Of a stretch of 64,000 bases of DNA, positions 10,103 through 63,175 are shown piece after piece; position 1 is the first letter of the stretch, and each line of letters opens with the position of its first letter. The stretch comes from Escherichia coli O157:H7 (lineage in GTDB: Bacteria > Pseudomonadota > Gammaproteobacteria > Enterobacterales > Enterobacteriaceae), in the NCBI RefSeq assembly GCF_013167455.1, contig NZ_CP038330.1; one strand, 5' to 3'. The position numbers were made by a program, and so were the translations under genes. The notes under the pieces were generated by a model. The model did not search any database and was not told the origin of the DNA. It was given only the letters and a program-made list of their open reading frames with translations.

Positions 10103-10119
10103 GCGCCCATTTTGGGCAG
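10103..10119. promoter_or_regulatory. candidate activator box GCGCCCATTTTGGGCAG
   Basis: CC-W5-GGGC inverted-repeat motif ~90-105 bp upstream of the operon start at 10013; similar boxes at 400-416, 36339-36353, 50344-50366. Confidence 0.35.
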
Positions 10120-10178
10120 ATAGACAAGTTATTTGGGCGTTTGGGCGTTTGGAGTGTGCGAGGTGGACAGCGGGGAGA

Positions 10179-10194
10179 CTTTCACATGTGAAAG
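10179..10194. promoter_or_regulatory. 16-bp palindrome CTTTCACATGTGAAAG (copy 1 of 5)
   Basis: Perfect palindrome in the divergent intergenic region; identical copies at 13594, 44203 (core), 50310, 58351. Confidence 0.6.
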
Positions 10195-10330
10195 TTTTGT
10201 TTCTTGGTATCGTTTTATTGTCTCTTGATATTATTTTATGATGCTGTAATAATCATAAATAAGGGCCGCATCGCTCTTCGACCTTCGTTGCAGCCCTTAC
10301 AACACAATCAAGCAATTAAGGAGCTTTGTT

Positions 10331-11253: not shown

Positions 11254-11526
11254 TTACAGTTTTCCGTACCGGTTCAAGAACGAAGACCTGTCTAAGATCC
11301 CCCAGTCTGTCAGCATGTAGTAGCCGGTGGCACCTCGTTCGCCGGTAGACTCCCTGACGAACAAGATATTCATTCCGAACTCATCACGCAGGGCAGACAA
11401 CTGTCTCTTGATCGTTGATTCAGGAATATTTGTTGCCTTGTGAAGGTCTTGGAGACTTGGCTTCTCCGTTTTAGACAGGGCATTCACCAAAGCAAATTTT
11501 CTTTTCATGTCCTGTGAGATCTTCAT
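11254..11526 (-). CDS. small HTH DNA-binding protein, third gene of the parAB operon
   Basis: ATG at 11526 with AGGTG RBS (track shows GTG at 11532); immediately downstream of parB as orf 053 is in IncC plasmids (recollection). Confidence 0.45.
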   Translation of the reverse strand: MKISQDMKRKFALVNALSKTEKPSLQDLHKATNIPESTIKRQLSALRDEFGMNILFVRESTGERGATGYYMLTDWGILDRSSFLNRYGKL

Positions 11527-11574: not shown

Positions 11575-12756
11575 TTAGCCTTCGACACTCAGGAGTTCAA
11601 TGTCTGACACAGGCACATGAACATGCTTTTCCTTGCCTTCGCCATCGAGCGTTTTAACCCAGACAGTAGACGGAACCAGAGCAACACGGTCGGTCATGAT
11701 GACTCCACGTTTGGTCTCGCCATCCAGGTTAACGTTGACAGCAAAAATCAAACTGTCAGCCCGGACGTTCTTCCATTCCTTGTCCTTCGGCAGAGGAGGA
11801 AGAGCATCACCGCCTTCTTCATCTTTGTCCTTGCCGCTGTTATCTGGCTGCTTGACAGGATCTTTGTGCTCACCCTCTTCATCACGCAAAGGGTCTTCGT
11901 CATCATCGTCCTGACCATTGGAATTTTTACCCCCTTCCAGTTCCTCCTGGGCAAGGTTCAGGTCGTCATTCCCGGTTTGTTCCGACGTACCATCCCCACC
12001 CGAGTTGAGGGATTGCTCGTCGGTGTTGCCAGCGCCAAGCTCATCATTCTGGTGGGAGCCAGTCAGTGGGCCTTTTTCCATTTCGTCTTTGATACGTTTG
12101 GCATCATTCAGCAGCTCACGGCTTTGTTTACGAGTAATCCCGTCAGACATAGCCACCGCGCAGACGGCGCGACATCTTTCTTCATTCAGATCGAACAAGA
12201 GACGAAGGTTATTCAAGGTCTCTGTATCAGAACATACTTCATTATCGTATAACTCACGCACACAGTCAGGTAGCTTGAGCAACGACAGATGCGTAGATAC
12301 GAAAGTGATATTCTTACCGAGCCGATCAGCAATATCCTTTTGCTTCCAACCTTCTTCAATAAACAGGTTTAACGCCTCGGCAATCTCTACCGGAGTCAAG
12401 TCATCCCGCTGGATGTTTTCGATCAGCTCACCAGCAGTCTCGTCCAAGTTGTTCTGGACCTTATCATTCACCACCAAGTCAATGGTCTCGATACCAGCGT
12501 GTTTACACGCTCTCCAACGCCGCTCCCCTTTTTGGATGACGAACTTGCCTTCTTCGTTCTTCGGGAACACGATGATCGGAGACTGCTGCCCTTCGGTCAG
12601 CAAGGTTGCCGCCAGCTCTTCAATGTTACGGAAGCGCTTACGAACCTGGACCTTGGATACAACGTCGTCAACAGGTACGGTAAGAACCTCTTTGCCTTTC
12701 TTGCCTTTGGCGGCTTTAGCAAGTTCGGACAGGCCTTTTAAATTGTTCAATGCCAT
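11575..12756 (-). CDS. parB: ParB partition protein (ParB/Spo0J nuclease-like domain)
   Basis: 393 aa; ParB N-terminal domain (IIVFPKNEEGKFVIQKGERRWRACKHAG); acidic low-complexity C-terminal half; directly downstream of parA. Confidence 0.85.
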   Translation of the reverse strand: MALNNLKGLSELAKAAKGKKGKEVLTVPVDDVVSKVQVRKRFRNIEELAATLLTEGQQSPIIVFPKNEEGKFVIQKGERRWRACKHAGIETIDLVVNDKVQNNLDETAGELIENIQRDDLTPVEIAEALNLFIEEGWKQKDIADRLGKNITFVSTHLSLLKLPDCVRELYDNEVCSDTETLNNLRLLFDLNEERCRAVCAVAMSDGITRKQSRELLNDAKRIKDEMEKGPLTGSHQNDELGAGNTDEQSLNSGGDGTSEQTGNDDLNLAQEELEGGKNSNGQDDDDEDPLRDEEGEHKDPVKQPDNSGKDKDEEGGDALPPLPKDKEWKNVRADSLIFAVNVNLDGETKRGVIMTDRVALVPSTVWVKTLDGEGKEKHVHVPVSDIELLSVEG

Positions 12757-12759
12757 CGC

Positions 12760-13551
12760 TTAGCCCACCTTCTCTAATAGTTCTTCCAACACCGCCTCAA
12801 CTTCTTTGGCCGCGACATGTCCATAGCGAAGCTCCCAGACAGGGATGCCATCAGTCGTCGCCGTATCGAGCGGAGGCCGGTGCATAATTTTGTTCTCAAA
12901 CAACAGATCCGGAACTGTGTTCTCCAGCGACTTGAGGGCTTTGTCGTGATTGACAGAGCGGTCCATGTCGTTGATCACGATGCCCAGGATCTCCAAATCT
13001 TGGTTGTACGCCTCGCGCACACCAATAATCGTGTTCAGGAGACCTTCTACGCCGTCCACAGCGAAGCCAGAGAGCTTTACTGGACATGCCACATGGGTAG
13101 ACATCACCAACGCTGCCACCAGCTTTCTGCCGAGGCTAGGCGGACAATCAATCAGCACGTAGTCGTAGTTCTCAAACAGCTCAGCCAAATGGCGAGCCGG
13201 ATTCATGGCCTGGTCAAGAGGCACAGCCTCCATCTCAAACAGATCCGGGTCGTTTTTCGGCGTATGAATGAGGTCTGCACCGCAAGGGCAGTGCATGACC
13301 TCAATGCCGTCCAGCTCGTAAGCGAACAGCTCTGCGGTTTTGGTTCCTGTGAGGATGGGCTCGTAGTCACCATCCTCAAGCTCTCGTCTGGGGGCCAGTC
13401 GAGAGGACGTGTTCCCCTGACCATCCATATCCAAGACCAGCACTTTCTTTTTCTTCTGTAACGCCAGATAAAAGGCCTGCTGGATACAGAGGGTACTCTT
13501 ACCCACTCCGCCTTTCTGGTTGGCGAAGCTGATTACTTTTGCCATACCCAC
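12760..13551 (-). CDS. parA: ParA partition ATPase (type I, deviant Walker A)
   Basis: KVISFANQKGGVGKST deviant Walker A; ParA/MinD family length. Confidence 0.9.
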   Translation of the reverse strand: MGMAKVISFANQKGGVGKSTLCIQQAFYLALQKKKKVLVLDMDGQGNTSSRLAPRRELEDGDYEPILTGTKTAELFAYELDGIEVMHCPCGADLIHTPKNDPDLFEMEAVPLDQAMNPARHLAELFENYDYVLIDCPPSLGRKLVAALVMSTHVACPVKLSGFAVDGVEGLLNTIIGVREAYNQDLEILGIVINDMDRSVNHDKALKSLENTVPDLLFENKIMHRPPLDTATTDGIPVWELRYGHVAAKEVEAVLEELLEKVG

Positions 13552-13593
13552 CTCTATTTTGGTTTCTCGCAGGTGATCAAGACCACCCCCAAA

Positions 13594-13638
13594 CTTTCAC
13601 ATGTGAAAGATTGTAGCGATCATAAAATGATACTGCAA
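13594..13638 (-). promoter_or_regulatory. parA promoter with overlapping palindromic operator (copy 2)
   Basis: Minus-strand -35 TTGCAG (13633-13638), 17-bp spacer, -10 TACAAT (13610-13615), then palindrome CTTTCACATGTGAAAG (13594-13609) at the predicted start site. Confidence 0.6.
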
Positions 13639-16016: not shown

Positions 16017-16852
16017 TGTTCATGCCGCCTGTTTTTCCTGCTCATTGGCACGTTTCGCAACCTGTTCTCATTGCGGACACCTTTTCCAGCCTCGTTTGGA
16101 AAGTTTCATTGCCAGACGGGACTCCTGCAATCGTCAAGGGATTGAAACCTATAGAAGACATTGCTGATGAACTGCGCGGGGCCGACTATCTGGTATGGCG
16201 CAATGGGAGGGGAGCAGTCCGGTTGCTCGGTCGTGAGAACAATCTGATGTTGCTCGAATATGCCGGGGAGCGAATGCTCTCTCACATCGTTGCCGAGCAC
16301 GGCGACTACCAGGCGACCGAAATTGCAGCGGAACTAATGGCGAAGCTGTATGCCGCATCTGAGGAACCCCTGCCTTCTGCCCTTCTCCCGATCCGGGATC
16401 GCTTTGCAGCTTTGTTTCAGCGGGCGCGCGATGATCAAAACGCAGGTTGTCAAACTGACTACGTCCACGCGGCGATTATAGCCGATCAAATGATGAGCAA
16501 TGCCTCGGAACTGCGTGGGCTACATGGCGATCTGCATCATGAAAACATCATGTTCTCCAGTCGCGGCTGGCTGGTGATAGATCCCGTCGGTCTGGTCGGT
16601 GAAGTGGGCTTTGGCGCCGCCAATATGTTCTACGATCCGGCTGACAGAGACGACCTTTGTCTCGATCCTAGACGCATTGCACAGATGGCGGACGCATTCT
16701 CTCGTGCGCTGGACGTCGATCCGCGTCGCCTGCTCGACCAGGCGTACGCTTATGGGTGCCTTTCCGCAGCTTGGAACGCGGATGGAGAAGAGGAGCAACG
16801 CGATCTAGCTATCGCGGCCGCGATCAAGCAGGTGCGACAGACGTCATACTAG
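16016..16852 (+). CDS. strB: aminoglycoside 6-phosphotransferase APH(6)-Id
   Basis: 278 aa starting MFMPPVFPAHWHVSQ at the internal ATG overlapping the strA stop. Confidence 0.97.
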   Translation: MFMPPVFPAHWHVSQPVLIADTFSSLVWKVSLPDGTPAIVKGLKPIEDIADELRGADYLVWRNGRGAVRLLGRENNLMLLEYAGERMLSHIVAEHGDYQATEIAAELMAKLYAASEEPLPSALLPIRDRFAALFQRARDDQNAGCQTDYVHAAIIADQMMSNASELRGLHGDLHHENIMFSSRGWLVIDPVGLVGEVGFGAANMFYDPADRDDLCLDPRRIAQMADAFSRALDVDPRRLLDQAYAYGCLSAAWNADGEEEQRDLAIAAAIKQVRQTSY

Positions 16853-17431
16853 ATATCAAGCGACTTCTCCTATCCCCTGGGAACACATCAATCTCACCGG
16901 AGAATATCGCTGGCCAAAGCCTTAGCGTAGGATTCCGCCCCTTCCCGCAAACGACCCCTGGAAGCCCCGTAGCGACGCGGAGAGGGGCGAGACAAGCCAA
17001 GGGCGCAGGCTCGATGCGCAGCACGACATAGCCGGTTCTCGCAAGGACGAGAATTTCCCTGCGGTGCCCCTCAAGTGTCAATGAAAGTTTCCAACGCGAG
17101 CCATTCGCGAGAGCCTTGAGTCCACGCTAGATCTATCTCATCTGCGCAAGGCAGAACGTGAAGACGGCCGCCCTGGACCTCGCCCGCGAGCGCCAGGCGC
17201 ACGAGGCCGGCGCGCGGACCCGCGCCACGGCCCACGAGCGGACGCCGCAGCAGGAGCGCCAGAAGGCCGCCAGAGAGGCCGAGCGCGGCCGTGAGGCTTG
17301 GACGCTAGGGCAGGGCATGAAAAAGCCCGTAGCGGGCTGCTACGGGCGTCTGACGCGGTGGAAAGGGGGAGGGGATGTTGTCTACATGGCTCTGCTGTAG
17401 TGAGTGGGTTGCGCTCCGGCAGCGGTCCTGA

Positions 17432-18082
17432 TCAATCGTCACCCTTTCTCGGTCCTTCAACGTTCCTGACAACGAGCCTCCTTTTCGCCAATCCATCGAC
17501 AATCACCGCGAGTCCCTGCTCGAACGCTGCGTCCGGACCGGCTTCGTCGAAGGCGTCTATCGCGGCCCGCAACAGCGGCGAGAGCGGAGCCTGTTCAACG
17601 GTGCCGCCGCGCTCGCCGGCATCGCTGTCGCCGGCCTGCTCCTCAAGCACGGCCCCAACAGTGAAGTAGCTGATTGTCATCAGCGCATTGACGGCGTCCC
17701 CGGCCGAAAAACCCGCCTCGCAGAGGAAGCGAAGCTGCGCGTCGGCCGTTTCCATCTGCGGTGCGCCCGGTCGCGTGCCGGCATGGATGCGCGCGCCATC
17801 GCGGTAGGCGAGCAGCGCCTGCCTGAAGCTGCGGGCATTCCCGATCAGAAATGAGCGCCAGTCGTCGTCGGCTCTCGGCACCGAATGCGTATGATTCTCC
17901 GCCAGCATGGCTTCGGCCAGTGCGTCGAGCAGCGCCCGCTTGTTCCTGAAGTGCCAGTAAAGCGCCGGCTGCTGAACCCCCAACCGTTCCGCCAGTTTGC
18001 GTGTCGTCAGACCGTCTACGCCGACCTCGTTCAACAGGTCCAGGGCGGCACGGATCACTGTATTCGGCTGCAACTTTGTCAT
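17432..18082 (-). CDS. tetR: tetracycline repressor TetR(A)
   Basis: 216 aa from MTKLQPNTVIRAALDLLNEVGVDGLTTRKLAERLGV; ORF track over-extends the N-terminus. Confidence 0.95.
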   Translation of the reverse strand: MTKLQPNTVIRAALDLLNEVGVDGLTTRKLAERLGVQQPALYWHFRNKRALLDALAEAMLAENHTHSVPRADDDWRSFLIGNARSFRQALLAYRDGARIHAGTRPGAPQMETADAQLRFLCEAGFSAGDAVNALMTISYFTVGAVLEEQAGDSDAGERGGTVEQAPLSPLLRAAIDAFDEAGPDAAFEQGLAVIVDGLAKRRLVVRNVEGPRKGDD

Positions 18083-18084
18083 GC

Positions 18085-18140
18085 TTGACACTTTATCACT
18101 GATAAACATAATATGTCCACCAACTTATCAGTGATAAAGA
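18085..18140. promoter_or_regulatory. tet operator/promoter region
   Basis: Two palindromic operators (TTTATCACTGATAAACA and CTTATCAGTGATAAAGA) between divergent tetR and tet(A). Confidence 0.7.
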
Positions 18141-18187
18141 ATCCGCGCGTTCAATCGGACCAGCGGAGGCTGGTCCGGAGGCCAGAC

Positions 18188-19387
18188 GTGAAACCCAACA
18201 GACCCCTGATCGTAATTCTGAGCACTGTCGCGCTCGACGCTGTCGGCATCGGCCTGATTATGCCGGTGCTGCCGGGCCTCCTGCGCGATCTGGTTCACTC
18301 GAACGACGTCACCGCCCACTATGGCATTCTGCTGGCGCTGTATGCGTTGATGCAATTTGCCTGCGCACCTGTGCTGGGCGCGCTGTCGGATCGTTTCGGG
18401 CGGCGGCCGGTCTTGCTCGTCTCGCTGGCCGGCGCTGCTGTCGACTACGCCATCATGGCGACGGCGCCTTTCCTTTGGGTTCTCTATATCGGGCGGATCG
18501 TGGCCGGCATCACCGGGGCGACTGGGGCGGTAGCCGGCGCTTATATTGCCGATATCACTGATGGCGATGAGCGCGCGCGGCACTTCGGCTTCATGAGCGC
18601 CTGTTTCGGGTTCGGGATGGTCGCGGGACCTGTGCTCGGTGGGCTGATGGGCGGTTTCTCCCCCCACGCTCCGTTCTTCGCCGCGGCAGCCTTGAACGGC
18701 CTCAATTTCCTGACGGGCTGTTTCCTTTTGCCGGAGTCGCACAAAGGCGAACGCCGGCCGTTACGCCGGGAGGCTCTCAACCCGCTCGCTTCGTTCCGGT
18801 GGGCCCGGGGCATGACCGTCGTCGCCGCCCTGATGGCGGTCTTCTTCATCATGCAACTTGTCGGACAGGTGCCGGCCGCGCTTTGGGTCATTTTCGGCGA
18901 GGATCGCTTTCACTGGGACGCGACCACGATCGGCATTTCGCTTGCCGCATTTGGCATTCTGCATTCACTCGCCCAGGCAATGATCACCGGCCCTGTAGCC
19001 GCCCGGCTCGGCGAAAGGCGGGCACTCATGCTCGGAATGATTGCCGACGGCACAGGCTACATCCTGCTTGCCTTCGCGACACGGGGATGGATGGCGTTCC
19101 CGATCATGGTCCTGCTTGCTTCGGGTGGCATCGGAATGCCGGCGCTGCAAGCAATGTTGTCCAGGCAGGTGGATGAGGAACGTCAGGGGCAGCTGCAAGG
19201 CTCACTGGCGGCGCTCACCAGCCTGACCTCGATCGTCGGACCCCTCCTCTTCACGGCGATCTATGCGGCTTCTATAACAACGTGGAACGGGTGGGCATGG
19301 ATTGCAGGCGCTGCCCTCTACTTGCTCTGCCTGCCGGCGCTGCGTCGCGGGCTTTGGAGAAATTCTTCAAATTCCCGTTGCACATAG
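18188..19387 (+). CDS. tet(A): tetracycline efflux MFS transporter TetA(A), last ~9 codons replaced by ISCR2-derived sequence
   Basis: GTG start (VKPNRPLIVILSTVALDAVGIG...); 12-TM MFS; C-terminus ...RRGLWRNSSNSRCT diverges from the remembered native ...GLWSGAGQRADR at ~19355, where the ISCR2 5'-end sequence begins. Confidence 0.9.
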   Translation: MKPNRPLIVILSTVALDAVGIGLIMPVLPGLLRDLVHSNDVTAHYGILLALYALMQFACAPVLGALSDRFGRRPVLLVSLAGAAVDYAIMATAPFLWVLYIGRIVAGITGATGAVAGAYIADITDGDERARHFGFMSACFGFGMVAGPVLGGLMGGFSPHAPFFAAAALNGLNFLTGCFLLPESHKGERRPLRREALNPLASFRWARGMTVVAALMAVFFIMQLVGQVPAALWVIFGEDRFHWDATTIGISLAAFGILHSLAQAMITGPVAARLGERRALMLGMIADGTGYILLAFATRGWMAFPIMVLLASGGIGMPALQAMLSRQVDEERQGQLQGSLAALTSLTSIVGPLLFTAIYAASITTWNGWAWIAGAALYLLCLPALRRGLWRNSSNSRCT

Positions 19388-19660
19388 CCCGGCAATTCCT
19401 TTCCCTGCTCTGCCATAAGCGCAGCGAATGCCGGGTAATACTCGTCAACGATCTGATAGAGAAGGGTTTGCTCGGGTCGGTGGCTCTGGTAACGACCAGT
19501 ATCCCGATCCCGGCTGGCCGTCCTGGCCGCCACATGAGGCATGTTCCGCGTCCTTGCAATACTGTGTTTACATACAGTCTATCGCTTAGCGGAAAGTTCT
19601 TTTACCCTCAGCCGAAATGCCTGCCGTTGCTAGACATTGCCAGCCAGTGCCCGTCACTCC
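19356..19660 (-). mobile_element. truncated ISCR2 copy (terIS-side ~305 bp including the first 62 codons of rcr2)
   Basis: Identical to 23641-23945 of the complete ISCR2; encodes MPHVAARTASRDRD...EFEEFLQ then diverges. Confidence 0.8.
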
Positions 19661-19959
19661 GCGGTCTTCACTGCGTGATCGAGTTGATCGACACCCGCCG
19701 TGACACGCTCCATGAAGTGCCTGCCTGCGTCTGTTAGCCGAACGCCCCGCGCATGGCGCTCAAATAGCAGGACACCAAGGTTATCCTCCAGCGCTTTCAC
19801 ACGCGCGCTGACGCTCGACTGGCTGATACCAAGTGCCTTGGCCGCATGCCGAAAATTCAGATGCTCGGCGACGGCGATGAACTGAACAAGGGAAATGAGC
19901 GGTATCCTGCCAGACAGGATACCGACATTCACGAGGTTTCGATGGTTAGTGCGCCGCAT
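19654..19959 (-). pseudogene. truncated LysR-family regulator (N-terminal HTH fragment)
   Basis: 101-aa fragment with LysR HTH (FIAVAEHLNFRHAAKALGISQSSVSARVKALE); cut by the ISCR2 fragment; typical floR-associated lysR remnant. Confidence 0.7.
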
Positions 19960-19986
19960 CGGAGCGGGCCTGCTACCAGTCGTCGG

Positions 19987-21201
19987 TTAGACGACTGGCG
20001 ACTTCTCGGTGGCAGCCCCACGGAGCCGAAGGAGCACCAGCCCCAACGAAACCAGTACCGCCATCGCCGTGGCGTAACAGATCACGGGCCACGCTGTGTC
20101 ACCGTTTAAAAGTGCCACCGCCAATGTCCCGACAATGCTGACTATCAGGCTTTGAACGCAGAAGTAGAACGCGACCGCTGATCCCGCGATGTCGTCGAAC
20201 TCTGCCAAAGCGCCGTTCGCGGTAACGGACACCGTGAAGACAATACCGACCGCGACAACCCACATCGGTAGGATGAAGGTGAGGAATGACGGCGAGCCGT
20301 AAAGTTCGCCGATCCCCAACAGGACCGCTCCGCAAACAAGCAACGCCATCCCACGCGCCACGCATCCTGCGATGCCCCATCTGGCGACAAAGGACTTCGC
20401 GAAACGGGTTGTCACGATCATTACAAGCGCGACAGTGGCGAAGGCAAAGCTGAATCCGATCTCGGAATATTCCGCTTGGCCTATGAGCACACGGGGAGCC
20501 GTCGAGAAGAAGACGAAGAAGGTGCCCATAACGGCGCTAAAGCCGACAGTGTAAACCCAAAAAGCCGGACTCGCGAAGATCGGCAAGACAGATCGGCGCG
20601 TCTTGACTTGATCCAGAGGGCGGGTTTCGTGCCACCTGAAACCCGCATTTAGGAGTGCGAGCATCGCCAGTATAGCCAAAGTAATGAATATCGCCTGCCA
20701 TCCCAAGAACTCGCCGATCAATGCTCCGGCGATAGGGCCGAGCGCAGGCACGAACGCCAGTATCGAACTGAAAAGGCCGTAGATGACGACACCCTCAGGA
20801 CGGTTGGCATAAACGTCGCGAACCGTCGCGAACGTCGCCACCAGCATGGCCGACGCGCCCACTGCTTGAAGTAGACGGAAAGCGACAAAGGCCGGTGCAG
20901 TTGAAGACCAAGCTGCTCCCAGAGACGCAATGACGAAAGCCGTTGCGCCCGCAAGTAGAATTGGCCGTCGCCCGATTCTGTCTGAGAGCGGACCAAAAAT
21001 CACCTGGCCCACGCCGAGCATCACCATATAGAGGCTCAACGTGAGTTGGATCATAGCGGGCGTCGTGTTCAGGATGCCGGGCATCGCTGGAACGACAGGG
21101 AGATAAATATCCATCGCCAGTGAAGCGAGGATGTCGAAAGGAGCCATCAGCAGCAGTGCTGCCGGCAGCGTATAGGCCCACGCGGGGCGTGTGGTGGTCA
21201 T
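19987..21201 (-). CDS. floR: florfenicol/chloramphenicol efflux MFS transporter FloR
   Basis: 404 aa, MTTTRPAWAYTLPAALLLMAPFDILASLAMDIYLPVVPAMP..., recognised as FloR. Confidence 0.97.
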   Translation of the reverse strand: MTTTRPAWAYTLPAALLLMAPFDILASLAMDIYLPVVPAMPGILNTTPAMIQLTLSLYMVMLGVGQVIFGPLSDRIGRRPILLAGATAFVIASLGAAWSSTAPAFVAFRLLQAVGASAMLVATFATVRDVYANRPEGVVIYGLFSSILAFVPALGPIAGALIGEFLGWQAIFITLAILAMLALLNAGFRWHETRPLDQVKTRRSVLPIFASPAFWVYTVGFSAVMGTFFVFFSTAPRVLIGQAEYSEIGFSFAFATVALVMIVTTRFAKSFVARWGIAGCVARGMALLVCGAVLLGIGELYGSPSFLTFILPMWVVAVGIVFTVSVTANGALAEFDDIAGSAVAFYFCVQSLIVSIVGTLAVALLNGDTAWPVICYATAMAVLVSLGLVLLRLRGAATEKSPVV

Positions 21202-21417
21202 GACGAATCAACCCTCGATTAAGGAATACCGGGCGACGTCTGCTCGTCAGCAATCAGATGAGACTAGCCTTACAGAGCGCCGCAACAACAATACTGGTTG
21301 TTGCGGCTTACTTGTCTGCTGACTTGGAATTTCCCATCTGATTACTCCACGCTTACGAATATGAATTGCTACATTTTATCCGATTATCTTTTGCTTCGCA
21401 ATGCGGCATGGGCGCAC

Positions 21418-22302
21418 TCAGCGTTCCAGCCCCCTCTGCCGCCCTAACTGCCACGACACCGACCCGCCCTGCACGATGCCCATAACCTCGCGGCCGAGTT
21501 GGCGGTCGATGATCGGCCGCCACGGGACAAGGGTGAACTCATGGGATTTCTCGACCACGGCGAACTTGCCGCTCGATAGATGCACGGTTCCGGTAAACTT
21601 GCCGCTGACGCTCTCGCCGTCCGTGGCGGCGCGGAACGGCAGGCCCTTACTCAAAGCCATATCCGATCCGACGCCGGCTACCTCGCGCTCCCGCAGGATG
21701 GCGAGAAGGTTGCGCCGGTAGAAGACGCGGCTGTCCCGGCTGCGGGTGGCGTCGCCCTGTTCGATATGGTGCTCGCGGCGCTGGTCCATGGCTTCGCGGA
21801 CTTGTTGCCCGAAGCCGGTTGGCGCAAGGTCGGCCGTCTCGCCGTGGATCAGCCGCCGGTCCAGCCAGGTCGCGCCGTCCGATCCGATCTGTTTGTTCAG
21901 ATCGACCGGGGAAAGGACGCGAACGCTGGCCTGACTGTCTCGGCCGGCGTCATGGGCGGCGGCACGGCTGACCAGATCATCGGGGATGCGCCATTGGTCG
22001 GCGTCGATCCGCTCGACGATACCGGCCCGGCGTAGCGCCTCCAGCCGGCGCACATGGGCATCGACATAGCCCTCATAGTCGCCGCCTGGAACGCGGCACG
22101 TATAGGAAGAATAAACGCCCTTTTCACCCAAGTCCAACAGCTTTGGACCGCAGTTGACTCTTTCGACACCCCTGCGATGCAACCCAATCCGGCTGACGGG
22201 GAGCCAGCAACGCTGAAAATTTACCCTCCTCTTTCCCACTAGCGGCTCCTTTTCCGACAACCAGCACGGCGGATCCCTGCCGCGGCGCTGTGAACGCAGC
22301 AT
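21418..22302 (-). pseudogene. relaxase/VirD2-like fragment associated with the ISCR2-floR unit
   Basis: 294-aa ORF between floR and ISCR2; matches the usual virD2-remnant context (recollection); no intact relaxase motifs checked. Confidence 0.55.
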
Positions 22303-22309
22303 TTTGATT

Positions 22310-23945
22310 GGTATCGTTGGCCTTCAGGCTCGTCAGTCAAACAGACCCAGGAGCAGCTCAGCCGGTGGCGCCCGGCTTTCGGGTAACGCCCTGGTCCCGC
22401 TGGTTTCGGCTTTGTGCTTCAGGTGATCAAGGATCTGCTTGATCACTATAGGGTCTTCAATGCAGGCGATGACTTTCATGGCGCCGCCGCAGCCGCTGCA
22501 GGTCTCGATGTCGATATTGAAAACACGCTTGAGCCGTTGCGCCCATGTCATCGACGCTCGCCGTTGTGCTGGTGTTGCCGGTTCATCAGCCACCCTGACC
22601 TTGTTGCCCCTGCCCCGTTTTGCCGGCGTGACCAACGCCCGGTGCCGACTGTTGGGTGCGAACACCCCGTGGAAGCGGGTTAGGTTGACTCTGGGCTTCG
22701 GTACCAGGGCGGCCAGCCTTGCAATGAAATCCAATGGTTCGAAAATGACGTGCGTGGTGCCGTCCCGGTACGGCGTCTTGAGCTGGTAGCGCACGTTGCC
22801 GCCTCGTGTTAACGACAGCCGCTTCTCGGATACCGCCGGGCGGCTGATGTACCGGCACAGCCGTTCGAGCTTCTTGCGTTCATCGGCCCTGGCCGCCACG
22901 CCGGCGTGCAGGCTGGACCCGGCTACCTTGCCAATCCCGTCACCGAACGGATCACCACTGGTCGGCAGAGTTTGCAAAGTGAACACCTTTCGCCCCGCCT
23001 GTGAACCGACAGCGATACGGTAAGTGATCGAGTGCCCCAGCAGGGGTGTCATCGGGTCGTCATCCACCGCATCCGAGGCCAGATAGCTGTTTTCGACATC
23101 CCGTTCCAGCAGGCCTTGCCGTTCCAGATAGCGACCCACCCGGTGGGCGATGGTGTGCGTCAGCTGGGTGAGCTCTGGGCTGGTCGGCGCCTTGACCCAG
23201 CGGAAACGCGCTGAGCCGTGGGATTGCTCGACATACACACCGTCGAGAAACAGCATGTGGAAGTGAACATTCAGATTGAGCGCCGATCCAAAACGCTGGA
23301 TCAGGGTGACCGCGCCCGTCTTGGCCACTTGGTGGGTATGGCCCGCTTTCTTGACCAGGTGCGTGGCAATGACGCGGTAAACGATGCCCAGCACCCACCC
23401 CATGATCTCGGGCCGGCTGGCAAACAGGAAACGCAGCTGAAACGGGAAGCTCAACACCCACTGACGCATGGGTTGTTCAGGCAGTACTTCATCAACCAGC
23501 AAGGCGGCACTTTCGGCCATCCGCCGCGCCCCACAGCTCGGGCAGAAACCGCGACGCTTACAGCTGAAAGCGACCAGGTGCTCGGCGTGGCAAGACTCGC
23601 AGCGAACCCGTAGAAAGCCATGCTCCAGCCGCCCGCATTGGAGAAATTCTTCAAATTCCCGTTGCACATAGCCCGGCAATTCCTTTCCCTGCTCTGCCAT
23701 AAGCGCAGCGAATGCCGGGTAATACTCGTCAACGATCTGATAGAGAAGGGTTTGCTCGGGTCGGTGGCTCTGGTAACGACCAGTATCCCGATCCCGGCTG
23801 GCCGTCCTGGCCGCCACATGAGGCATGTTCCGCGTCCTTGCAATACTGTGTTTACATACAGTCTATCGCTTAGCGGAAAGTTCTTTTACCCTCAGCCGAA
23901 ATGCCTGCCGTTGCTAGACATTGCCAGCCAGTGCCCGTCACTCCC
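22310..23945 (-). mobile_element. ISCR2 (IS91-like rolling-circle element), complete copy; oriIS-side boundary approximate
   Basis: Contains intact rcr2; terIS-side end at 23945 defined by the end of identity with the truncated copy at 19660. Confidence 0.85.
22333..23826 (-). CDS. rcr2: ISCR2 rolling-circle transposase (IS91 family)
   Basis: 497 aa; HUH-type motifs (HFHMLFLDGVY), zinc-binding CxxC pairs; recognised sequence. Confidence 0.95.
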   Translation of the reverse strand: MPHVAARTASRDRDTGRYQSHRPEQTLLYQIVDEYYPAFAALMAEQGKELPGYVQREFEEFLQCGRLEHGFLRVRCESCHAEHLVAFSCKRRGFCPSCGARRMAESAALLVDEVLPEQPMRQWVLSFPFQLRFLFASRPEIMGWVLGIVYRVIATHLVKKAGHTHQVAKTGAVTLIQRFGSALNLNVHFHMLFLDGVYVEQSHGSARFRWVKAPTSPELTQLTHTIAHRVGRYLERQGLLERDVENSYLASDAVDDDPMTPLLGHSITYRIAVGSQAGRKVFTLQTLPTSGDPFGDGIGKVAGSSLHAGVAARADERKKLERLCRYISRPAVSEKRLSLTRGGNVRYQLKTPYRDGTTHVIFEPLDFIARLAALVPKPRVNLTRFHGVFAPNSRHRALVTPAKRGRGNKVRVADEPATPAQRRASMTWAQRLKRVFNIDIETCSGCGGAMKVIACIEDPIVIKQILDHLKHKAETSGTRALPESRAPPAELLLGLFD

Positions 23946-24036
23946 ACTCGATTGTAAACAAGCACACAAAACCCTTTAGTGACAACAATTTGCAAGAACT
24001 ATCAGGCTCAGTGCCATGAAAAATACCATGACCAGA

Positions 24037-24261
24037 TCATGAGGTTGAACACGGCTTGCGCCGGCAGCGTTCACGCTCCTGGTCGGCGATCTCGCCCGGC
24101 TGCAATGCTAGCTCAGCATCGGTCATGCGCTCCAGCACGTCGCGTAGGCGGATGGTGCAAGGAATGGGCGGCAGCTCGAACTCATAGCCGCCGGCGATCA
24201 TTTCGGCCGCAATCTCCTCGGTGATGAAAAACGGCTCGTCGTCTTGGTTCGGCTTCTTCAT
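24037..24261 (-). CDS. hypothetical protein (74 aa)
   Basis: ORF overlapping the resolvase stop (ATGA). Confidence 0.3.
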   Translation of the reverse strand: MKKPNQDDEPFFITEEIAAEMIAGGYEFELPPIPCTIRLRDVLERMTDAELALQPGEIADQERERCRRKPCSTS

Positions 24262-24965
24262 GCCCTTTCCTCCTGGCGCTCATCCTGGCCGACAGCGGCC
24301 AGGGCATCGGCTTCCGTCAATGCGTCCTCCACGAACGCGCCGTGCTGCTTCGCTTCGGCCTGGCTGACCTCGGCCCATATCCGTTTCACCTGGGCCGCAC
24401 TGTACCCGGCCAGCTCGGCGGTCTTGTTGATGCTGTAGCCGGACTTGCGCAGCGCGACAACTTGGGCGCGGCGCTTCGGATCAGCACGGCGGCCCTTGTA
24501 CCGCCCGGCCTGGCGGGCCAACTCAATGCCTTGGCGCTGGCGTTCGCGCCTGTCCTCGTAGTCGTCGCGGGCCATCTGCAAGGCCAGGCGAAAAAGCATG
24601 ATCTGCACGGCTTCCAGCACGATCTTGGCGACGCCCTGGGCCTCGGCCGCCAGGTCGGATAGATCGACCACGCCAGGGACGGCCAGGCGTGCGCCTTTGG
24701 CCTGTATCGAGGCCACCAGGCGCTCGGCCTCGGGCAAAGGTAGGCGGCTGATGCGGTCGATCTTCTCGGCAATGACCACCTCGCCGGGCTGTAGGTCGCC
24801 GATCATGCGCAGCAGCTCAGGCCGGTCGGCGCGTGCGCCGGATGCCTTCTCACGGTAGATGCCGGCGACGTAGTAGCCGGCGGCCTTCGCGGCCGTAGTG
24901 ATCGCCTCTTGGCGTTCCAAGTCCTGCGCGTCGGTGCTGACGCGCAGATAGACCCGCGCCACCAT
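24258..24965 (-). CDS. serine recombinase (resolvase family)
   Basis: N-terminal catalytic motif MVARVYLRVSTDAQDLERQ; C-terminal HTH (YSINKTAELAGYSAAQVKRIW); start taken at internal Met. Confidence 0.8.
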   Translation of the reverse strand: MVARVYLRVSTDAQDLERQEAITTAAKAAGYYVAGIYREKASGARADRPELLRMIGDLQPGEVVIAEKIDRISRLPLPEAERLVASIQAKGARLAVPGVVDLSDLAAEAQGVAKIVLEAVQIMLFRLALQMARDDYEDRRERQRQGIELARQAGRYKGRRADPKRRAQVVALRKSGYSINKTAELAGYSAAQVKRIWAEVSQAEAKQHGAFVEDALTEADALAAVGQDERQEERA

Positions 24966-25118
24966 CGGCGCGGCTACTGGCTTCGTCCTGCGCATACTTG
25001 CGGGCTCCTTTGGGCATACGCAAAGTGTCCGGTCATGCTACCCCCGGCCAAAAAGGCCGTCATGCGATTTATCTTGGCCGGGTCGTTATTGGCGGGTCTA
25101 AATGGCCGCTCCGTGGAT

Positions 25119-25345
25119 CTCATCGCCAGAAATGGCGATGCGAGATCCAGGGCAGGGCGGCCGCCATCGTCAGACCTGGCGATGGTCGACGCCGGCGCGC
25201 ATCGTCGGATGTGGCGATGCGAGCTCGAGGTCGGTGGCCACCGCCGGCGACCTGGTGCCATCGTCGGCAATGGCGATGCTGCAGCTCGACGTGCGCGGCC
25301 TGGTCGTCTCGGCATCGTCGGATGCGGCGATGCTCGAGCGAGGCG
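25119..25345. repeat. GC-rich iteron-like direct repeats (~5 copies)
   Basis: Repeated CATCGTC(A/G)G...TGGCGATGC units at ~25119, 25157, 25199, 25257, 25312, between the resolvase gene and IS26. Confidence 0.5.
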
Positions 25346-25574
25346 AAAAAAAACCGCCTCGGGGTGTCCGAGGCGGCAAGTCTGCATGCGGTTCAGGGAG
25401 GAAGAAACCGCGCCGGCGATCAGGGAGGAAAACCGCGCGGCCTGATGTGCAGCTCGGCCACTTTAGCCGGATTTTTCGACTTATCCGATGCGAGCGGCCC
25501 GCCGTGGGCGCTGCTCGATCTGCTGTTGCTTTTTCTCGACGTGCTTCTGCTCCTGGTGCTGCTGCTCGTCGCGC

Positions 25575-26394
25575 GGCACTGTTGCAAAGTTAGCGATGAG
25601 GCAGCCTTTTGTCTTATTCAAAGGCCTTACATTTCAAAAACTCTGCTTACCAGGCGCATTTCGCCCAGGGGATCACCATAATAAAATGCTGAGGCCTGGC
25701 CTTTGCGTAGTGCACGCATCACCTCAATACCTTTGATGGTGGCGTAAGCCGTCTTCATGGATTTAAATCCCAGCGTGGCGCCGATTATCCGTTTCAGTTT
25801 GCCATGATCGCATTCAATCACGTTGTTCCGGTACTTAATCTGTCGGTGTTCAACGTCAGACGGGCACCGGCCTTCGCGTTTGAGCAGAGCAAGCGCGCGA
25901 CCATAGGCGGGCGCTTTATCCGTGTTGATGAATCGCGGGATCTGCCACTTCTTCACGTTGTTGAGGATTTTACCCAGAAACCGGTATGCAGCTTTGCTGT
26001 TACGACGGGAGGAGAGATAAAAATCGACAGTGCGGCCCCGGCTGTCGACGGCCCGGTACAGATACGCCCAGCGGCCATTGACCTTCACGTAGGTTTCATC
26101 CATGTGCCACGGGCAAAGATCGGAAGGGTTACGCCAGTACCAGCGCAGCCGTTTTTCCATTTCAGGCGCATAACGCTGAACCCAGCGGTAAATCGTGGAG
26201 TGATCGACATTCACTCCGCGTTCAGCCAGCATCTCCTGCAGCTCACGGTAACTGATGCCGTATTTGCAGTACCAGCGTACGGCCCACAGAATGATGTCAC
26301 GCTGAAAATGCCGGCCTTTGAATGGGTTCATGTGCAGCTCCATCAGCAAAAGGGGATGATAAGTTTATCACCACCGACTATTTGCAACAGTGCC
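25575..26394 (-). mobile_element. IS26, complete 820-bp copy
   Basis: 14-bp terminal IRs GGCACTGTTGCAAA at 25575-25588 and (reverse complement) 26381-26394; intact tnp26. Confidence 0.95.
25627..26331 (-). CDS. tnp26: IS26 transposase Tnp26 (wild-type Gly184)
   Basis: 234 aa MNPFKGRHFQRDIILWAVRWY...; contains RIIGATLGF. Confidence 0.95.
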   Translation of the reverse strand: MNPFKGRHFQRDIILWAVRWYCKYGISYRELQEMLAERGVNVDHSTIYRWVQRYAPEMEKRLRWYWRNPSDLCPWHMDETYVKVNGRWAYLYRAVDSRGRTVDFYLSSRRNSKAAYRFLGKILNNVKKWQIPRFINTDKAPAYGRALALLKREGRCPSDVEHRQIKYRNNVIECDHGKLKRIIGATLGFKSMKTAYATIKGIEVMRALRKGQASAFYYGDPLGEMRLVSRVFEM

Positions 26395-27098
26395 TACATT
26401 TCAAAAACTCTGCTTACCAGGCGCATTTCGCCCAGGGGATCACCATAATAAAATGCTGAGGCCTGGCCTTTGCGTAGTGCACGCATCACCTCAATACCTT
26501 TGATGGTGGCGTAAGCCGTCTTCATGGATTTAAATCCCAGCGTGGCGTTGATTATCCGTTTCAGTTTGCCATGATCGCATTCAATCACGTTGTTCCGGTA
26601 CTTAATCTGTCGGTGTTCAACGTCAGACGGGCACCGGCCTTCGCGTTTGAGCAGAGCAAGCGCGCGACCATAGGCGGGCGCTTTATCCGTGTTGATGAAT
26701 CGTGGGATCTGCCACTTCTTCACGTTGTTGAGGATTTTACCCAGAAACCGGTATGCAGCTTTGCTGTTACGACGGGAGGAGAGATAAAAATCGACAGTGC
26801 GGCCCCGGCTGTCGACGGCCCGGTACAGATACGCCCAGCGGCCATTGACCTTCACGTAGGTTTCATCCATGTGCCACGGGCAAAGATCGGAAGGGTTACG
26901 CCAGTACCAGCGCAGCCGTTTTTCCATTTCAGGCGCATAACGCTGAACCCAGCGGTAAATCGTGGAGTGATCGACATTCACTCCGCGTTCAGCCAGCATC
27001 TCCTGCAGCTCACGGTAACTGATGCCGTATTTGCAGTACCAGCGTACGGCCCACAGAATGATGTCACGCTGAAAATGCCGGCCTTTGAATGGGTTCAT
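26394..27098 (-). CDS. tnp26: IS26 transposase, G184N variant
   Basis: Same as Tnp26 except RIINATLGF (GGC->AAC); stop codon recreated as TAG at the junction. Confidence 0.9.
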   Translation of the reverse strand: MNPFKGRHFQRDIILWAVRWYCKYGISYRELQEMLAERGVNVDHSTIYRWVQRYAPEMEKRLRWYWRNPSDLCPWHMDETYVKVNGRWAYLYRAVDSRGRTVDFYLSSRRNSKAAYRFLGKILNNVKKWQIPRFINTDKAPAYGRALALLKREGRCPSDVEHRQIKYRNNVIECDHGKLKRIINATLGFKSMKTAYATIKGIEVMRALRKGQASAFYYGDPLGEMRLVSRVFEM

Positions 27099-27161
27099 GT
27101 GCAGCTCCATCAGCAAAAGGGGATGATAAGTTTATCACCACCGACTATTTGCAACAGTGCC
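26395..27161 (-). mobile_element. IS26 truncated tandem copy 2 (767 bp; lacks the 53-bp tnp-distal end including one IR)
   Basis: Begins at the tnp stop codon directly abutting the IRL of copy 1; ends with TTTGCAACAGTGCC. Confidence 0.85.
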
Positions 27162-27865
27162 TACATTTCAAAAACTCTGCTTACCAGGCGCATTTCGCCC
27201 AGGGGATCACCATAATAAAATGCTGAGGCCTGGCCTTTGCGTAGTGCACGCATCACCTCAATACCTTTGATGGTGGCGTAAGCCGTCTTCATGGATTTAA
27301 ATCCCAGCGTGGCGTTGATTATCCGTTTCAGTTTGCCATGATCGCATTCAATCACGTTGTTCCGGTACTTAATCTGTCGGTGTTCAACGTCAGACGGGCA
27401 CCGGCCTTCGCGTTTGAGCAGAGCAAGCGCGCGACCATAGGCGGGCGCTTTATCCGTGTTGATGAATCGTGGGATCTGCCACTTCTTCACGTTGTTGAGG
27501 ATTTTACCCAGAAACCGGTATGCAGCTTTGCTGTTACGACGGGAGGAGAGATAAAAATCGACAGTGCGGCCCCGGCTGTCGACGGCCCGGTACAGATACG
27601 CCCAGCGGCCATTGACCTTCACGTAGGTTTCATCCATGTGCCACGGGCAAAGATCGGAAGGGTTACGCCAGTACCAGCGCAGCCGTTTTTCCATTTCAGG
27701 CGCATAACGCTGAACCCAGCGGTAAATCGTGGAGTGATCGACATTCACTCCGCGTTCAGCCAGCATCTCCTGCAGCTCACGGTAACTGATGCCGTATTTG
27801 CAGTACCAGCGTACGGCCCACAGAATGATGTCACGCTGAAAATGCCGGCCTTTGAATGGGTTCAT
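27161..27865 (-). CDS. tnp26: IS26 transposase, G184N variant
   Basis: Identical to the copy-2 transposase. Confidence 0.9.
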   Translation of the reverse strand: MNPFKGRHFQRDIILWAVRWYCKYGISYRELQEMLAERGVNVDHSTIYRWVQRYAPEMEKRLRWYWRNPSDLCPWHMDETYVKVNGRWAYLYRAVDSRGRTVDFYLSSRRNSKAAYRFLGKILNNVKKWQIPRFINTDKAPAYGRALALLKREGRCPSDVEHRQIKYRNNVIECDHGKLKRIINATLGFKSMKTAYATIKGIEVMRALRKGQASAFYYGDPLGEMRLVSRVFEM

Positions 27866-27928
27866 GTGCAGCTCCATCAGCAAAAGGGGATGATAAGTTT
27901 ATCACCACCGACTATTTGCAACAGTGCC
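27162..27928 (-). mobile_element. IS26 truncated tandem copy 3 (767 bp)
   Basis: Identical unit to copy 2; terminal IR TTTGCAACAGTGCC ends at 27928. Confidence 0.85.
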
Positions 27929-28074
27929 CCCAATGCGCTGTCCAGTCATGGAATTCCCTGCAAAATGTCAGGGAAGACTCTATGACCTTCAACGAGATAT
28001 GTCAATAAATTCAAAATTCAATCCTATCCTGACGCAATTTACACATGGCATCTGACATCAGGTTAGGGTATGCC

Positions 28075-29064
28075 TCAGTCTGACAGTGATGAGTCGCAGG
28101 CGTTCGGATCGGCATCGGTTTCGCTCCCGGTCTTGGCGCGCGCCTGGAAGCGCTGATAGCACTCCAGCCCGCAGAAGTGCTCGACGTATTCCGCGCCTTC
28201 CGGGGTGAAGGCGGCATCGAGCGGGATTTCCTTGCAGCACACGCAGCAACTGGTGGCAGTCGGATCATTTGCATTCATGGTGGCACCCCTCCATTGACTG
28301 ACGAAGACGGCGAATGCCGCCGCCGGCATCGGCTTGGCGAACAGGAAGCCTTGTCCTGTGTCGCAGTCCGCTTGTCGCAACAAATCAAGACTCGCCGATG
28401 TTTCCACGCCTTCGGCCACTACTTCCATGCCAAGCCCATGCGCAAGCTGAATCACGGTGCGCACGATGGTCTGGTCGCGGTGGTCGTTGGCGAGTCCGGC
28501 GACAAACGATTGGTCGATCTTGAGCGTGCTGATGGGGCAGCATTTCAGGTGTTGCAGGCAGGAATAGCCGGTGCCGAAGTCGTCGGCGGCGAAGCGCACA
28601 CCGATCTGTCGCAAAGCTTCCAGGGCGGGGAAGATCGCCGGATCACCGAACGCAACCGATTCGGTCAGCTCAATTTCAAGATACGCGGCGGGCAACCCGG
28701 CATCGGCCAGCACGCCCTTTACCCACTTGTCGAAATCTGGCCCCACTTGGCTCGCCGAAACATTGACGGCCAGCCGGAACGGTTGCCATGCCAGCACCCG
28801 CCAGTCGCGCATTTGACGGCAGGCTGCGCCCAGCACCCATGCGCCGATTTCCGGCATCAGGCCGGACGATTCGATCACGGGCAGGAACTGGCCCGGCGGC
28901 AACAGTCCGAGCGTCGGATGACGCCAGCGCAACAGGGCTTCCGCGCCGACAATCTGCTCACTGCGCAAATCGACAATCGGCTGGTAGTGCAGCTCAAGCT
29001 GCCCGCGCTCGACCGCCTGCGCCAGTTGCGCCACTGTCCATTCAATTGGCTGGGAAGCGCTCAT
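28075..29064 (-). CDS. urf2: EAL-domain protein Urf2 of mer modules
   Basis: Start [16 protein letters not shown] overlapping the merE stop (ATGA); EAL signatures (EALLRW, ELTES); ORF track over-extends to 29550. Confidence 0.8.
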
Positions 29065-43723: not shown

Positions 43724-44734
43724 TTGCACGACACAAACAATGACAAGGAAGAGCTAGTTTCACATGCGAAAGTAAATGTTCCGGCAGAACAAAGCATTCG
43801 CGGTGAACTGTTGCCGTCATCGAGCTCGCTCCGGAACATCCAGGACAACCCCGCCGTCGCCTATCTGGTGAGCCTCGGGTCAAAGCGAAGCAGGCAGACC
43901 ATGAGCTCATTCCTCAACATTGTCGCCAAGATGATCGGGTTTCAGAACCTTCGTGACTGTGCATGGAGCTCAATGAGGCGGCACCACATATTGGCGGTGC
44001 TGGAAATGCTGGGGGATGCAGGGAAGGCTCCGGCAACGATCAACACCTACCTGTCAGCGCTCAAAGGGGTGGCTCTTGAAGCCTGGACGATGAAGCAAAT
44101 TGATACGGATAGCTTCCAGCACATTAAGCAAGTCCGTTCAGTACGTGGATCTCGACTTCCTAAAGGGCGGGCACTTGAACGCCATGAGATTCGCAGCCTC
44201 TTTTTCACATGTGAAAGTGATTCAAGCGCCAAAGGGCTTCGGGATGCGGCCATTCTCGGGGTGCTCCTCGGGTGTGGCTTGCGCCGCTCGGAAATCGTTG
44301 CGCTGGACATGGGAAGCATGATCTACAAGGACCGCGCTCTCAAGGTTCTTGGCAAGGGCAACAAAGAGAGAATGGCGTATGTGCCTGGTGGCGCATGGAA
44401 AAGACTGGATAAGTGGGTTGAAGAGGTTCGAGGAACGCATGAAGGGCCTTTATTCCCGAGGATCAGGCGGTTTGATGATGTGACTGGAGAGCGGATGTCG
44501 GATCAGGCCATCTACCACATCTTGGAGACCAGAAGAGTTGAAGCCGGTCTGGAGATGTTTGCGCCCCATGACCTGCGACGCACCTTTGCCTCCTCGATGC
44601 TGGATAACGGTGAGGATATTGTGACCGTGAAGGACGCAATGGGCCACTCAAGCATTGCAACTACCCAGAAATATGACAGACGCGGCGATGAGCGTTTGAA
44701 GAGAGCGAGCCAACGCCTCGATATAGCGGATTAA
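43724..44734 (+). CDS. int: tyrosine site-specific recombinase (phage-integrase family)
   Basis: TTG start with AGGAGG RBS; C-terminal catalytic region HDLRRTFASSML...GHSSIATTQKY; contains a copy of the palindrome TTTCACATGTGAAAG at 44203-44217. Confidence 0.8.
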   Translation: MHDTNNDKEELVSHAKVNVPAEQSIRGELLPSSSSLRNIQDNPAVAYLVSLGSKRSRQTMSSFLNIVAKMIGFQNLRDCAWSSMRRHHILAVLEMLGDAGKAPATINTYLSALKGVALEAWTMKQIDTDSFQHIKQVRSVRGSRLPKGRALERHEIRSLFFTCESDSSAKGLRDAAILGVLLGCGLRRSEIVALDMGSMIYKDRALKVLGKGNKERMAYVPGGAWKRLDKWVEEVRGTHEGPLFPRIRRFDDVTGERMSDQAIYHILETRRVEAGLEMFAPHDLRRTFASSMLDNGEDIVTVKDAMGHSSIATTQKYDRRGDERLKRASQRLDIAD

Positions 44735-58369: not shown

Positions 58370-58939
58370 GCCCTTACGGAACAAGGCGTTTATTGACAAA
58401 GCATTACATAGTTGAACATGTCAAACAAATCGCATACACTATGGAATAGGCCATTGCTAACGCTTTGGTCCCCATCTGCAACACCGCAGAGTTCTCTTTC
58501 TCAAATATCTCTTTCTGTAAACACCATCATCCTTGTGTGGTCGGGATGCGCCTTTGCCTTCCCTGCCCTCCTCAGCTCCTGCTGTATTCGCAATTTCAGC
58601 CCTCGCTGTATCCCTAAAATCACTTATACCTAAACGCTATTTAATATCACAAAATACCGCACTCCCCGTGCGCTATTTCCGCCATTCTTTTGGCGCACTT
58701 TCCATTACTATCGCAAAAATATCCGTATCCCATTGATTACTAAAAGTATTGTAACTTTGTTCCGTCGGTACAAAGTTAAGTGTATGTTTTTAAAGGTTTT
58801 TTATTGTTGACAGCATCATTATTTGGGCTTGTAAAGGCGCAAAATGTGTCAGTTTGTGACAATAGAAGAACTCTAAAAGCGTTCATCGAATAACGCACTT
58901 TTTGTATGGCTAACAACGCAGTTTAAAGGGTGGCAAACA

Positions 58940-59212
58940 ATGGATAAATGCCAATTGATAGACATCCCAAGCGACCCAGAGAAGAAACGTGAGTGGATCA
59001 AGTACAAACTCAAGATCCAGGGGCTTTCTCTGGCCGCATTGGGCAGAAAACACAAAACATCTCGGCAGGTGGTGTCTACGGCACTCTATAAGCCCAGTCC
59101 ACGCTGGGAACATGAGATAGCTACAGCTTTGGGTGTGAAGCCGTCTGAGATTTGGCCGGAGCGGTACGACGAAGAACACGAAATACCCCTCAGACATAAG
59201 GAGGCAAGCTGA
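58940..59212 (+). CDS. Ner/Nlp-family HTH DNA-binding protein (possible Acr1-type repressor)
   Basis: 90 aa; SLAALGRKHKTSRQVVSTALYKPSPRWEHEIATALGVKPSEIWPERY matches the Ner family pattern. Confidence 0.6.
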   Translation: MDKCQLIDIPSDPEKKREWIKYKLKIQGLSLAALGRKHKTSRQVVSTALYKPSPRWEHEIATALGVKPSEIWPERYDEEHEIPLRHKEAS

Positions 59213-62696: not shown

Positions 62697-63175
62697 AAAG
62701 ATTGCTTTTAGATTGCTTTTCGATTGCTTGCCGCGTGTTGGATAGAGAATAAGGCTAAAAGCGGGGACAGATGGCCTGTGTAATTGCCCAAAAGGGGCAT
62801 ATAGGTTGCTTTTCGGTGGCTTTTTGATCGTTGAGTAAGGGAACCTATGGGAACGCTGCACGGATAGGCTCAGATAAACAGACCTTACCCTCGCATCGAG
62901 AACCGCTTGCCCTCCAGCATCGAGAGACGGTGGTAAAGAGGCATTTGGAATCTTTGATGCCATATCCAATATATCTGGAATCTTTAAATATAGATTCATA
63001 TGTAAAGAGGCTGTGAAAGAATAAGAGCATCAAGATTCCAGATAGATAGAGGGAAATTTGACAAATTCCAAAGATGGGTTAGCCTAGTGACAGAACTAGA
63101 TTCCAGTATTGGAATAATCAGCTTTAAATTCCAGATAGATAGTTATGTGGATAGGAATTGGATAGGAATTGGGAG
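62697..63175. repeat. centromere-like repeat region upstream of the parM-like gene
   Basis: 3x GATTGCTTTT (62697-62730), 2x GGAATCTTT, 2x ATTCCAGATAGATAG, 2x GGATAGGAATT (63150-63171). Confidence 0.5.

Follow-up and report, generated by a model that had tools for sequence, protein, structure and literature searches.

A repeated palindrome in an IncC plasmid backbone is the published parS of IncA/IncC plasmids

The palindrome repeated in the 64-kb stretch of IncC plasmid DNA analysed here (hereafter the window, meaning this stretch at its full length) is the parS of IncA/IncC plasmids, which has already been published. We estimate the probability that the copies function as parS in the ParABS partition system of IncA/IncC plasmids, with autorepression of the parA promoter (PparA), at roughly 0.93. 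Judged by their sequence, the sites in the window have every feature of the parS described by Murányi, Szabó, Acsai and Kiss (2024, NAR 52:2498, PMC10954446): the core, the AAAC/GTTT flanks, the five positions and ParB itself are the same, as is the way in which the −10 element of parA is overlapped, nothing substantive differs, and the window holds five of the 12–14 copies typical of one plasmid. The repeat had been noticed from the raw sequence alone; the observation was real, correctly read and already known, and the sequence-only reading recovered an experimentally validated centromere/operator together with the correct binding protein. The additions made here are modest: a decayed sixth site, the footprint of conservation in IncA, and the same ParB–parS pair on a Thiothrix plasmid in which the small protein 053 was not detected. 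IncA/IncC plasmids are among the main vehicles of multidrug resistance. It is already established that parS sites define the inheritance of these plasmids and that genomic islands of the SGI1 type mimic parS, hijack partition and expel the plasmid.

A motif search of the window detected four exact copies of the 16-mer CTTTCACATGTGAAAG, at 10179–10194, 13594–13609, 50310–50325 and 58351–58366. The copy at 44202–44217 (TTTTCACATGTGAAAG) has one mismatch, so of the five exact 16-mers initially claimed four stand, whereas the fifth agrees at 15 of 16 bases and contains the exact 14-bp core (44203–44216). A further copy at 43757–43772 (GTTTCACATGCGAAAG), overlooked at first, has two mismatches to the 16-mer. 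A script run over the window located the exact 14-bp core TTTCACATGTGAAA five times, with starts at 10180, 13595, 44203, 50311 and 58352; the copy at 43757 is not among them, having one mismatch in the core. Chance was assessed with 100 dinucleotide-preserving shuffles of the window at a threshold of three or fewer mismatches. The window gave six matches, the shuffles gave 0.27 on average and three at most, and none of the 100 reached six, which bears out the initial view that the repeat count is far beyond chance. A search with the 12-bp centre alone gave the same picture as that with the 16-mer.

At all five exact-core sites, the core is directly followed on its 3′ side by G and then T on at least one strand, a feature that ParB binding needs (PMC10954446). 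In site order, the 3′ flanks are GTTT (10176), GTTT (13591, minus strand), GTGA (44199), GTTG (50307) and GTTT (58347), those of the copy at 44199, in a xerC-like gene, being the weakest. Together the sites span 48 kb of the window; three are intergenic, one lies at a promoter −10 element and one within a gene. Alignment of 80 bp around each copy showed that the likeness is limited to the palindrome and three to four flanking bases and that the remainder is unrelated; the copies are thus discrete sites and not the remains of some longer duplication. An origin as ends of mobile elements or as longer duplicated segments was ruled out, since the flanks are unrelated and features of repeat ends are absent.

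For the IncC plasmid R55, a set of 14 TTTCACATGTGAAA copies with AAAC/GTTT flanks has been described, together with two parS mimics, DR1 and DR2, in Salmonella genomic island 1 (SGI1); the 14-bp core was defined as fully conserved (PMC10954446). All five exact-core sites of the window are on this published list, as parAB053, R55_55, R55_130/xerC, R55_170/DNA helicase as well as R55_174/eexC. In EMSA, purified IncC ParB specifically shifted the site at PparA, the consensus site close to eexC, and DR2 of SGI1 (PMC10954446), so that the published binding data cover two of the five window-equivalent sites, PparA and eexC. The 14-bp core alone was not bound, the flanks being required too, and a 4-bp insertion in the centre of parS abolished binding (PMC10954446). 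The shifts were unusually high, which was interpreted as spreading of ParB (PMC10954446). A mini-replicon carrying parS in cis was stabilised only when both ParA and ParB were supplied in trans (PMC10954446). Whole IncC plasmids repressed PparA 8–11 fold, and a mini-IncC with only parAB053 repressed it more weakly than the whole plasmid (PMC10954446). This difference points to an additional backbone regulator at PparA, where ParB would not be the whole story; the SGI1 protein Sci apparently targets this regulator (PMC10954446). We searched the literature for more recent studies on a global regulatory role of ParB in IncC plasmids, which yielded nothing beyond the 2024 paper (PMC10954446).

The parS copy at the parA promoter (13591–13612, AAAC-TTTCACATGTGAAA-GATT) is an autoregulatory operator and a centromere site. 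The putative PparA, read from the sequence on the minus strand (13610–13638), consists of a −35 element TTGCAG (13638–13633), a 17-bp spacer and a −10 element TACAAT (13615–13610), and the annotated ATG of parA is at 13545. The −10 element abuts the 16-mer at 13594–13609; the full 22-bp site overlaps it by 3 bp and spans the likely transcription start. Against the consensus, the −10 element matches at five of six positions and the −35 element at only three of six, and a generic scan for sigma-70 promoters, run on the four intergenic parS regions, did not call the parA promoter. The description of this promoter as near-consensus therefore fits the −10 element only, although its geometry was also read correctly. 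In the published work, a promoter was predicted in the PparA region by BProm and the cloned region was a strong promoter (PMC10954446). The R55 site identical to the 13591–13612 copy was the one used both in EMSA and in the PparA-lacZ repression experiments (PMC10954446). The proposal that the palindrome lies directly after the parA promoter as an autoregulatory operator or centromere thus agrees with the published EMSA, stabilisation and PparA repression (PMC10954446).

The other exact copies differ in setting. The parS at 10176–10197 (AGAC-core-GTTT), the R55_55 site of the published list (PMC10954446), is in a divergent intergenic region between a minus-strand operon starting from about 10004 (vcrx036/R55_55) and a small plus-strand ORF at 10332 (vcrx035); its counterparts are at 33115 in IncA and at 3340 of the Vibrio rumoiensis locus (L005). 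The parS at 50307–50328 (ATTC-core-GTTG) is between a UvrD-type helicase gene (end 50298) and traF (start 50409) and corresponds to the R55_170/DNA helicase and traF entry (PMC10954446). The copy between eexC (57862–58224, minus strand) and acr1 (58940–59212, plus strand) is the consensus parS. It is a perfect palindrome of 24 bp, CAAACTTTCACATGTGAAAGTTTG, at 58347–58370, and not of 22 bp as had been stated for 58351; in its 22-bp core and flanks it is identical to the R55_174/eexC consensus probe that ParB shifted in the published EMSA (PMC10954446). About 70 bp from it, in the same intergenic region, an isolated right half-site TGTGAAAGTTT is present on the plus strand at 58278–58288, where a half-site had been placed at about 58277. 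As a conserved auxiliary site it found no confirmation, not being kept in the orthologous IncA region, and its significance is consequently doubtful.

The remaining exact core is inside a gene for a xerC-like tyrosine recombinase (43724–44734, plus strand), as had been recognised for an integrase gene. This copy (44199–44220, TCTT-core-GTGA) is R55_130/xerC on the published list (PMC10954446). Given its poor flanks, TCTT and GTGA, and the lack of binding to the 14-bp core alone, it may bind ParB weakly or not at all. At the 5′ end of the same gene, a degenerate copy, CTAG-TTTCACATGCGAAA-GTAA, occupies 43754–43775 and is absent from the 14 published sites (PMC10954446). At the orthologous IncA position (counterpart of 43757), the core is exact and embedded in a perfect palindrome of 26 bp, which argues for a decayed parS and not a chance near-match. 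This site probably decayed in the IncC lineage through a codon change from GTG to GCG.

The complete IncA plasmid p550_IncA_VIM_1 contains 12 exact cores, and its ParB is about 90% identical. An exact core is present at every position orthologous to the window sites, and the surrounding 300 bp are only 70–96% identical. At the xerC site, the core is identical at 14 of 14 positions and the surrounding 300 bp at 69.9%. Outside IncA/C, the 14-bp core was found upstream of parA on the distantly related pVAS19 of Vibrio alginolyticus (pAQU-type), whose ParB is 56% identical. The promoter layout there is that of the window PparA, TTGCAG-17-TAGAAT followed by the palindrome, and the cores are at 9244 and 19029 of the analysed locus (L003). 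The same core also occurs upstream of parA on pTfr153 of Thiothrix fructosivorans (NZ_CP072750.1), whose backbone is unrelated and carries transfer genes of the IncP type; across the N-terminal and DNA-binding domains, its ParB is about 61% identical. On both plasmids, the distance from the core to the parA ATG is 55–65 bp. All seven copies on pTfr153 (three exact and four variants) cluster around parAB and two rep genes in a segment of 12.5 kb (69.4–81.9 kb; 16421–28628 of locus L004), and the flanks are mostly AAG/CTT and not AAC/GTT. The occurrence of the core on pVAS19 and pTfr153 indicates that the ParB–parS module reaches well beyond the IncA/C backbone.

The partition genes of the window are on the minus strand. 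parA (12760–13545) encodes a Walker-type partition ATPase of 261 aa, and parB (11575–12756) a KorB-domain ParB of 393 aa. The Pfam domains of ParB are ParB_N (PF02195, residues 23–116), HTH_ParB and KorB (PF08535, residues 134–222, E 4e-38, over the full model length), and the protein scores above the curated cut-off of NCBIfam parB_part for the ParB partition family. It carries the sequence GERRWRA, a GxxRxxA arginine motif that aligns with GARRYRG of KorB 8qa8; arginine motifs of the GERRWRA type are a feature of CTP-binding ParB clamps. Among solved structures in the PDB, the closest was RK2 KorB (8qa8, E 9e-21); Noc and Spo0J came next, both as strong matches, and KorB 1r71 was also matched. 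Binding of this ParB to the palindrome is known from the published EMSA (PMC10954446). The identification of the palindrome as parS or operator of the plasmid ParB in a KorB-type network is thus supported both by the KorB-domain ParB and by the published experiments (PMC10954446).

The system resembles the KorB–OB system of RK2/RP4 (IncP-1) in several respects. Both have a KorB DNA-binding domain and an N-terminal ParB motif of the CTP type; in both, single palindromes are dispersed around the plasmid, at promoters as well as far from them, and the ParB doubles as centromere-binding protein and repressor. The OB operator of RK2 is TTTAGCSGCTAAA, from which the window motif TTTCACATGTGAAA differs, only the outer TTT/AAA being common to both. 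Full repression needs a second factor in both systems, which in RK2 is KorA (PMC11790492). The transfer genes of IncC plasmids are under the FlhDC-like activator AcaCD, whereas those of RK2 are under KorAB/TrbA. The system thus works like KorB–OB yet, given its different operator sequence and the lack of a known KorA-like partner, is not of that operator family. With chromosomal ParB–parS systems (Spo0J, Pseudomonas aeruginosa ParB) it shares a 16-bp palindromic parS, multiple copies and a ParB with GERRxRA; it differs in the parS sequence and in being plasmid-borne. Chromosomal ParBs are weak regulators, whereas the promoter-overlapping autoregulatory site of IncC gives 8–11 fold repression.

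According to the mechanism that we propose, dimers of the KorB-type ParB would recognise the 22-bp site AAAC-TTTCACATGTGAAA-GTTT through flanks plus core, binding as such being published. By analogy with KorB and chromosomal ParB, the protein probably goes on to bind CTP, to form a closed clamp and to spread away from each site (PMC11790492 for RK2). The resulting partition complexes would be segregated by the ParA ATPase, consistent with the published stabilisation by ParA and ParB. ParB bound to 13591–13612 would repress the parA-parB-053 operon; the repression is published, and its attribution to ParB is strongly suggested by the position of this copy, which abuts and overlaps the −10 element of the promoter of its own operon. 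Sequence likeness predicts ParB binding at the copies at 10176, 44199 and 50307 as well. The copies other than that at PparA are single sites scattered around the backbone, as in the KorB/OB arrangement of RK2, and not a clustered centromere.

Alternatively, the main role of the sites might be regulatory, as operators of a transcriptional circuit across the whole plasmid, a KorB-like regulon modulating AcaCD-dependent transfer promoters, with partition in second place. We regard this as possible but rather less probable than a primary role in partition. The AcaCD motif is GCCCNDWWWGGGC (PMC8373056), and three exact boxes are present in the window (10105–10117, 50349–50361 and 62786–62798), two of them within 80 bp of a parS. 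The box at 10105–10117 (GCCCATTTTGGGC, an exact match) is centred 75.5 bp from the centre of the 10176 parS. The box of the traF promoter (50349–50361, GCCCTAAATGGGC) has the centre of the 50307 parS 37.5 bp upstream of its own centre, and PtraF is known to depend on AcaCD (PMC4207636). A further parS–box pair, 63.5 bp apart from centre to centre, is present on the IncC-like plasmid of V. rumoiensis. The generic sigma-70 scan found no promoter at the traF parS site, which fits activator-dependent promoters, but it was of no help in placing promoters. The authors of the 2024 study list four AcaCD promoters near parS and two more in SGI1 and propose crosstalk; knockout of the parS in SGI1 DR1 lowered the copy number of SGI1 (PMC10954446). 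KorB of RK2 is a precedent for such a regulon role (PMC11790492).

Against this stand the directly demonstrated partition function (PMC10954446), the published reporter data, which cover PparA only, and pTfr153, which has the sites without any AcaCD system. No fixed spacing or phasing between parS and box was found among the three pairs (37.5, 63.5 and 75.5 bp), and this variability argues against a rigid composite element. Because parS and AcaCD boxes are both largely intergenic, the association is suggestive, not compelling. The coordination of transfer and accessory operons by parS sites, also proposed from the raw sequence, is plausible but unproven. Tentatively, IncC ParB could be both a partition protein and a KorB-like, CTP-dependent sliding-clamp regulator that tunes AcaCD-dependent promoters (traF, vcrx035/036 and others). 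It would then need a KorA-like, clamp-locking backbone partner, the one targeted by Sci, and the module would be portable beyond IncA/C. We consider this wider model possible but less likely than not.

A role of the palindrome as operator of 053 and not of ParB is very improbable. The 053 gene (11254–11526, minus strand) is the third of the parA-parB-053 operon, after parB, and encodes a winged-HTH protein of 90 aa that matched Pfam HTH_43 (PF09904, 8e-10) and had no match in NCBIfam. It is thus a protein of DNA-binding type, is co-transcribed with parAB, and is required for plasmid maintenance, as cited in PMC10954446. However, purified ParB alone binds the sites specifically, and 053 is dispensable for parS-dependent stabilisation, to which it contributes nothing (PMC10954446). 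In addition, pTfr153 has both the motif and parAB, and tblastn covering 150 of its 153 kb detected no homologue of 053. The motif goes with parAB and not with 053, which argues against 053 as the binding protein and agrees with the biochemistry. The suggestion that the small HTH protein downstream of parB is the binder is disfavoured on both grounds, and ParB remains the preferred binding protein.

The motif also holds TGTGA and TCACA pentamers resembling those of CRP sites. In a CRP site, these pentamers stand in the order opposite to that of the motif, with a 6-bp spacer between them, and a CRP-type site was rejected on both counts. Binding by a host or other plasmid regulator (a CRP-like factor, Acr1 or AcaB), for which the copy in the eexC–acr1 intergenic region might also speak, or a relic of a mobile-element end is the least credible explanation of all, given that the copy on the acr1 side lies about 570 bp upstream of acr1 itself, that unrelated flanks and missing repeat-end features do not fit a relic, and that ParB binding is published (PMC10954446).

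The window represents an IncC (IncA/C2) backbone, and its par and tra/acr regions are 100% identical to hundreds of IncC plasmids of type MOBH/MPF_F. In the acr region, acr1 (58940–59212) is followed by acaDC, acr2 and stbA. After the UvrD-type helicase gene come traF, traH and traG. traH (51451–54197) is split by an IS3-family element (orfA 52494–52820, orfB 52817–53707), and the plasmid may consequently be defective in conjugative transfer. Directly upstream of parA, a resistance region (13700–36000) contains sul2, strAB, tetRA, floR, ISVsa3, IS26 and the mercury resistance genes merD/merE. On its far side, the backbone continues from the xerC side instead of from that of repA, suggesting that IS26 has mediated a rearrangement of the gene order usual for IncC. 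Within this region, an IS26-like element (25575–27928) has its body triplicated head to tail with a period of 767 bp (copy starts 25628, 26395 and 27162), a repeat missed by Tandem Repeats Finder, whose longest period is 500. The copies are 99–100% identical, with one left and three right terminal repeats. Full-length IS26 is 820 bp, of which about 53 bp are missing from the second and third copies; the structure is either an unusual array of partial IS26 or an assembly artefact.
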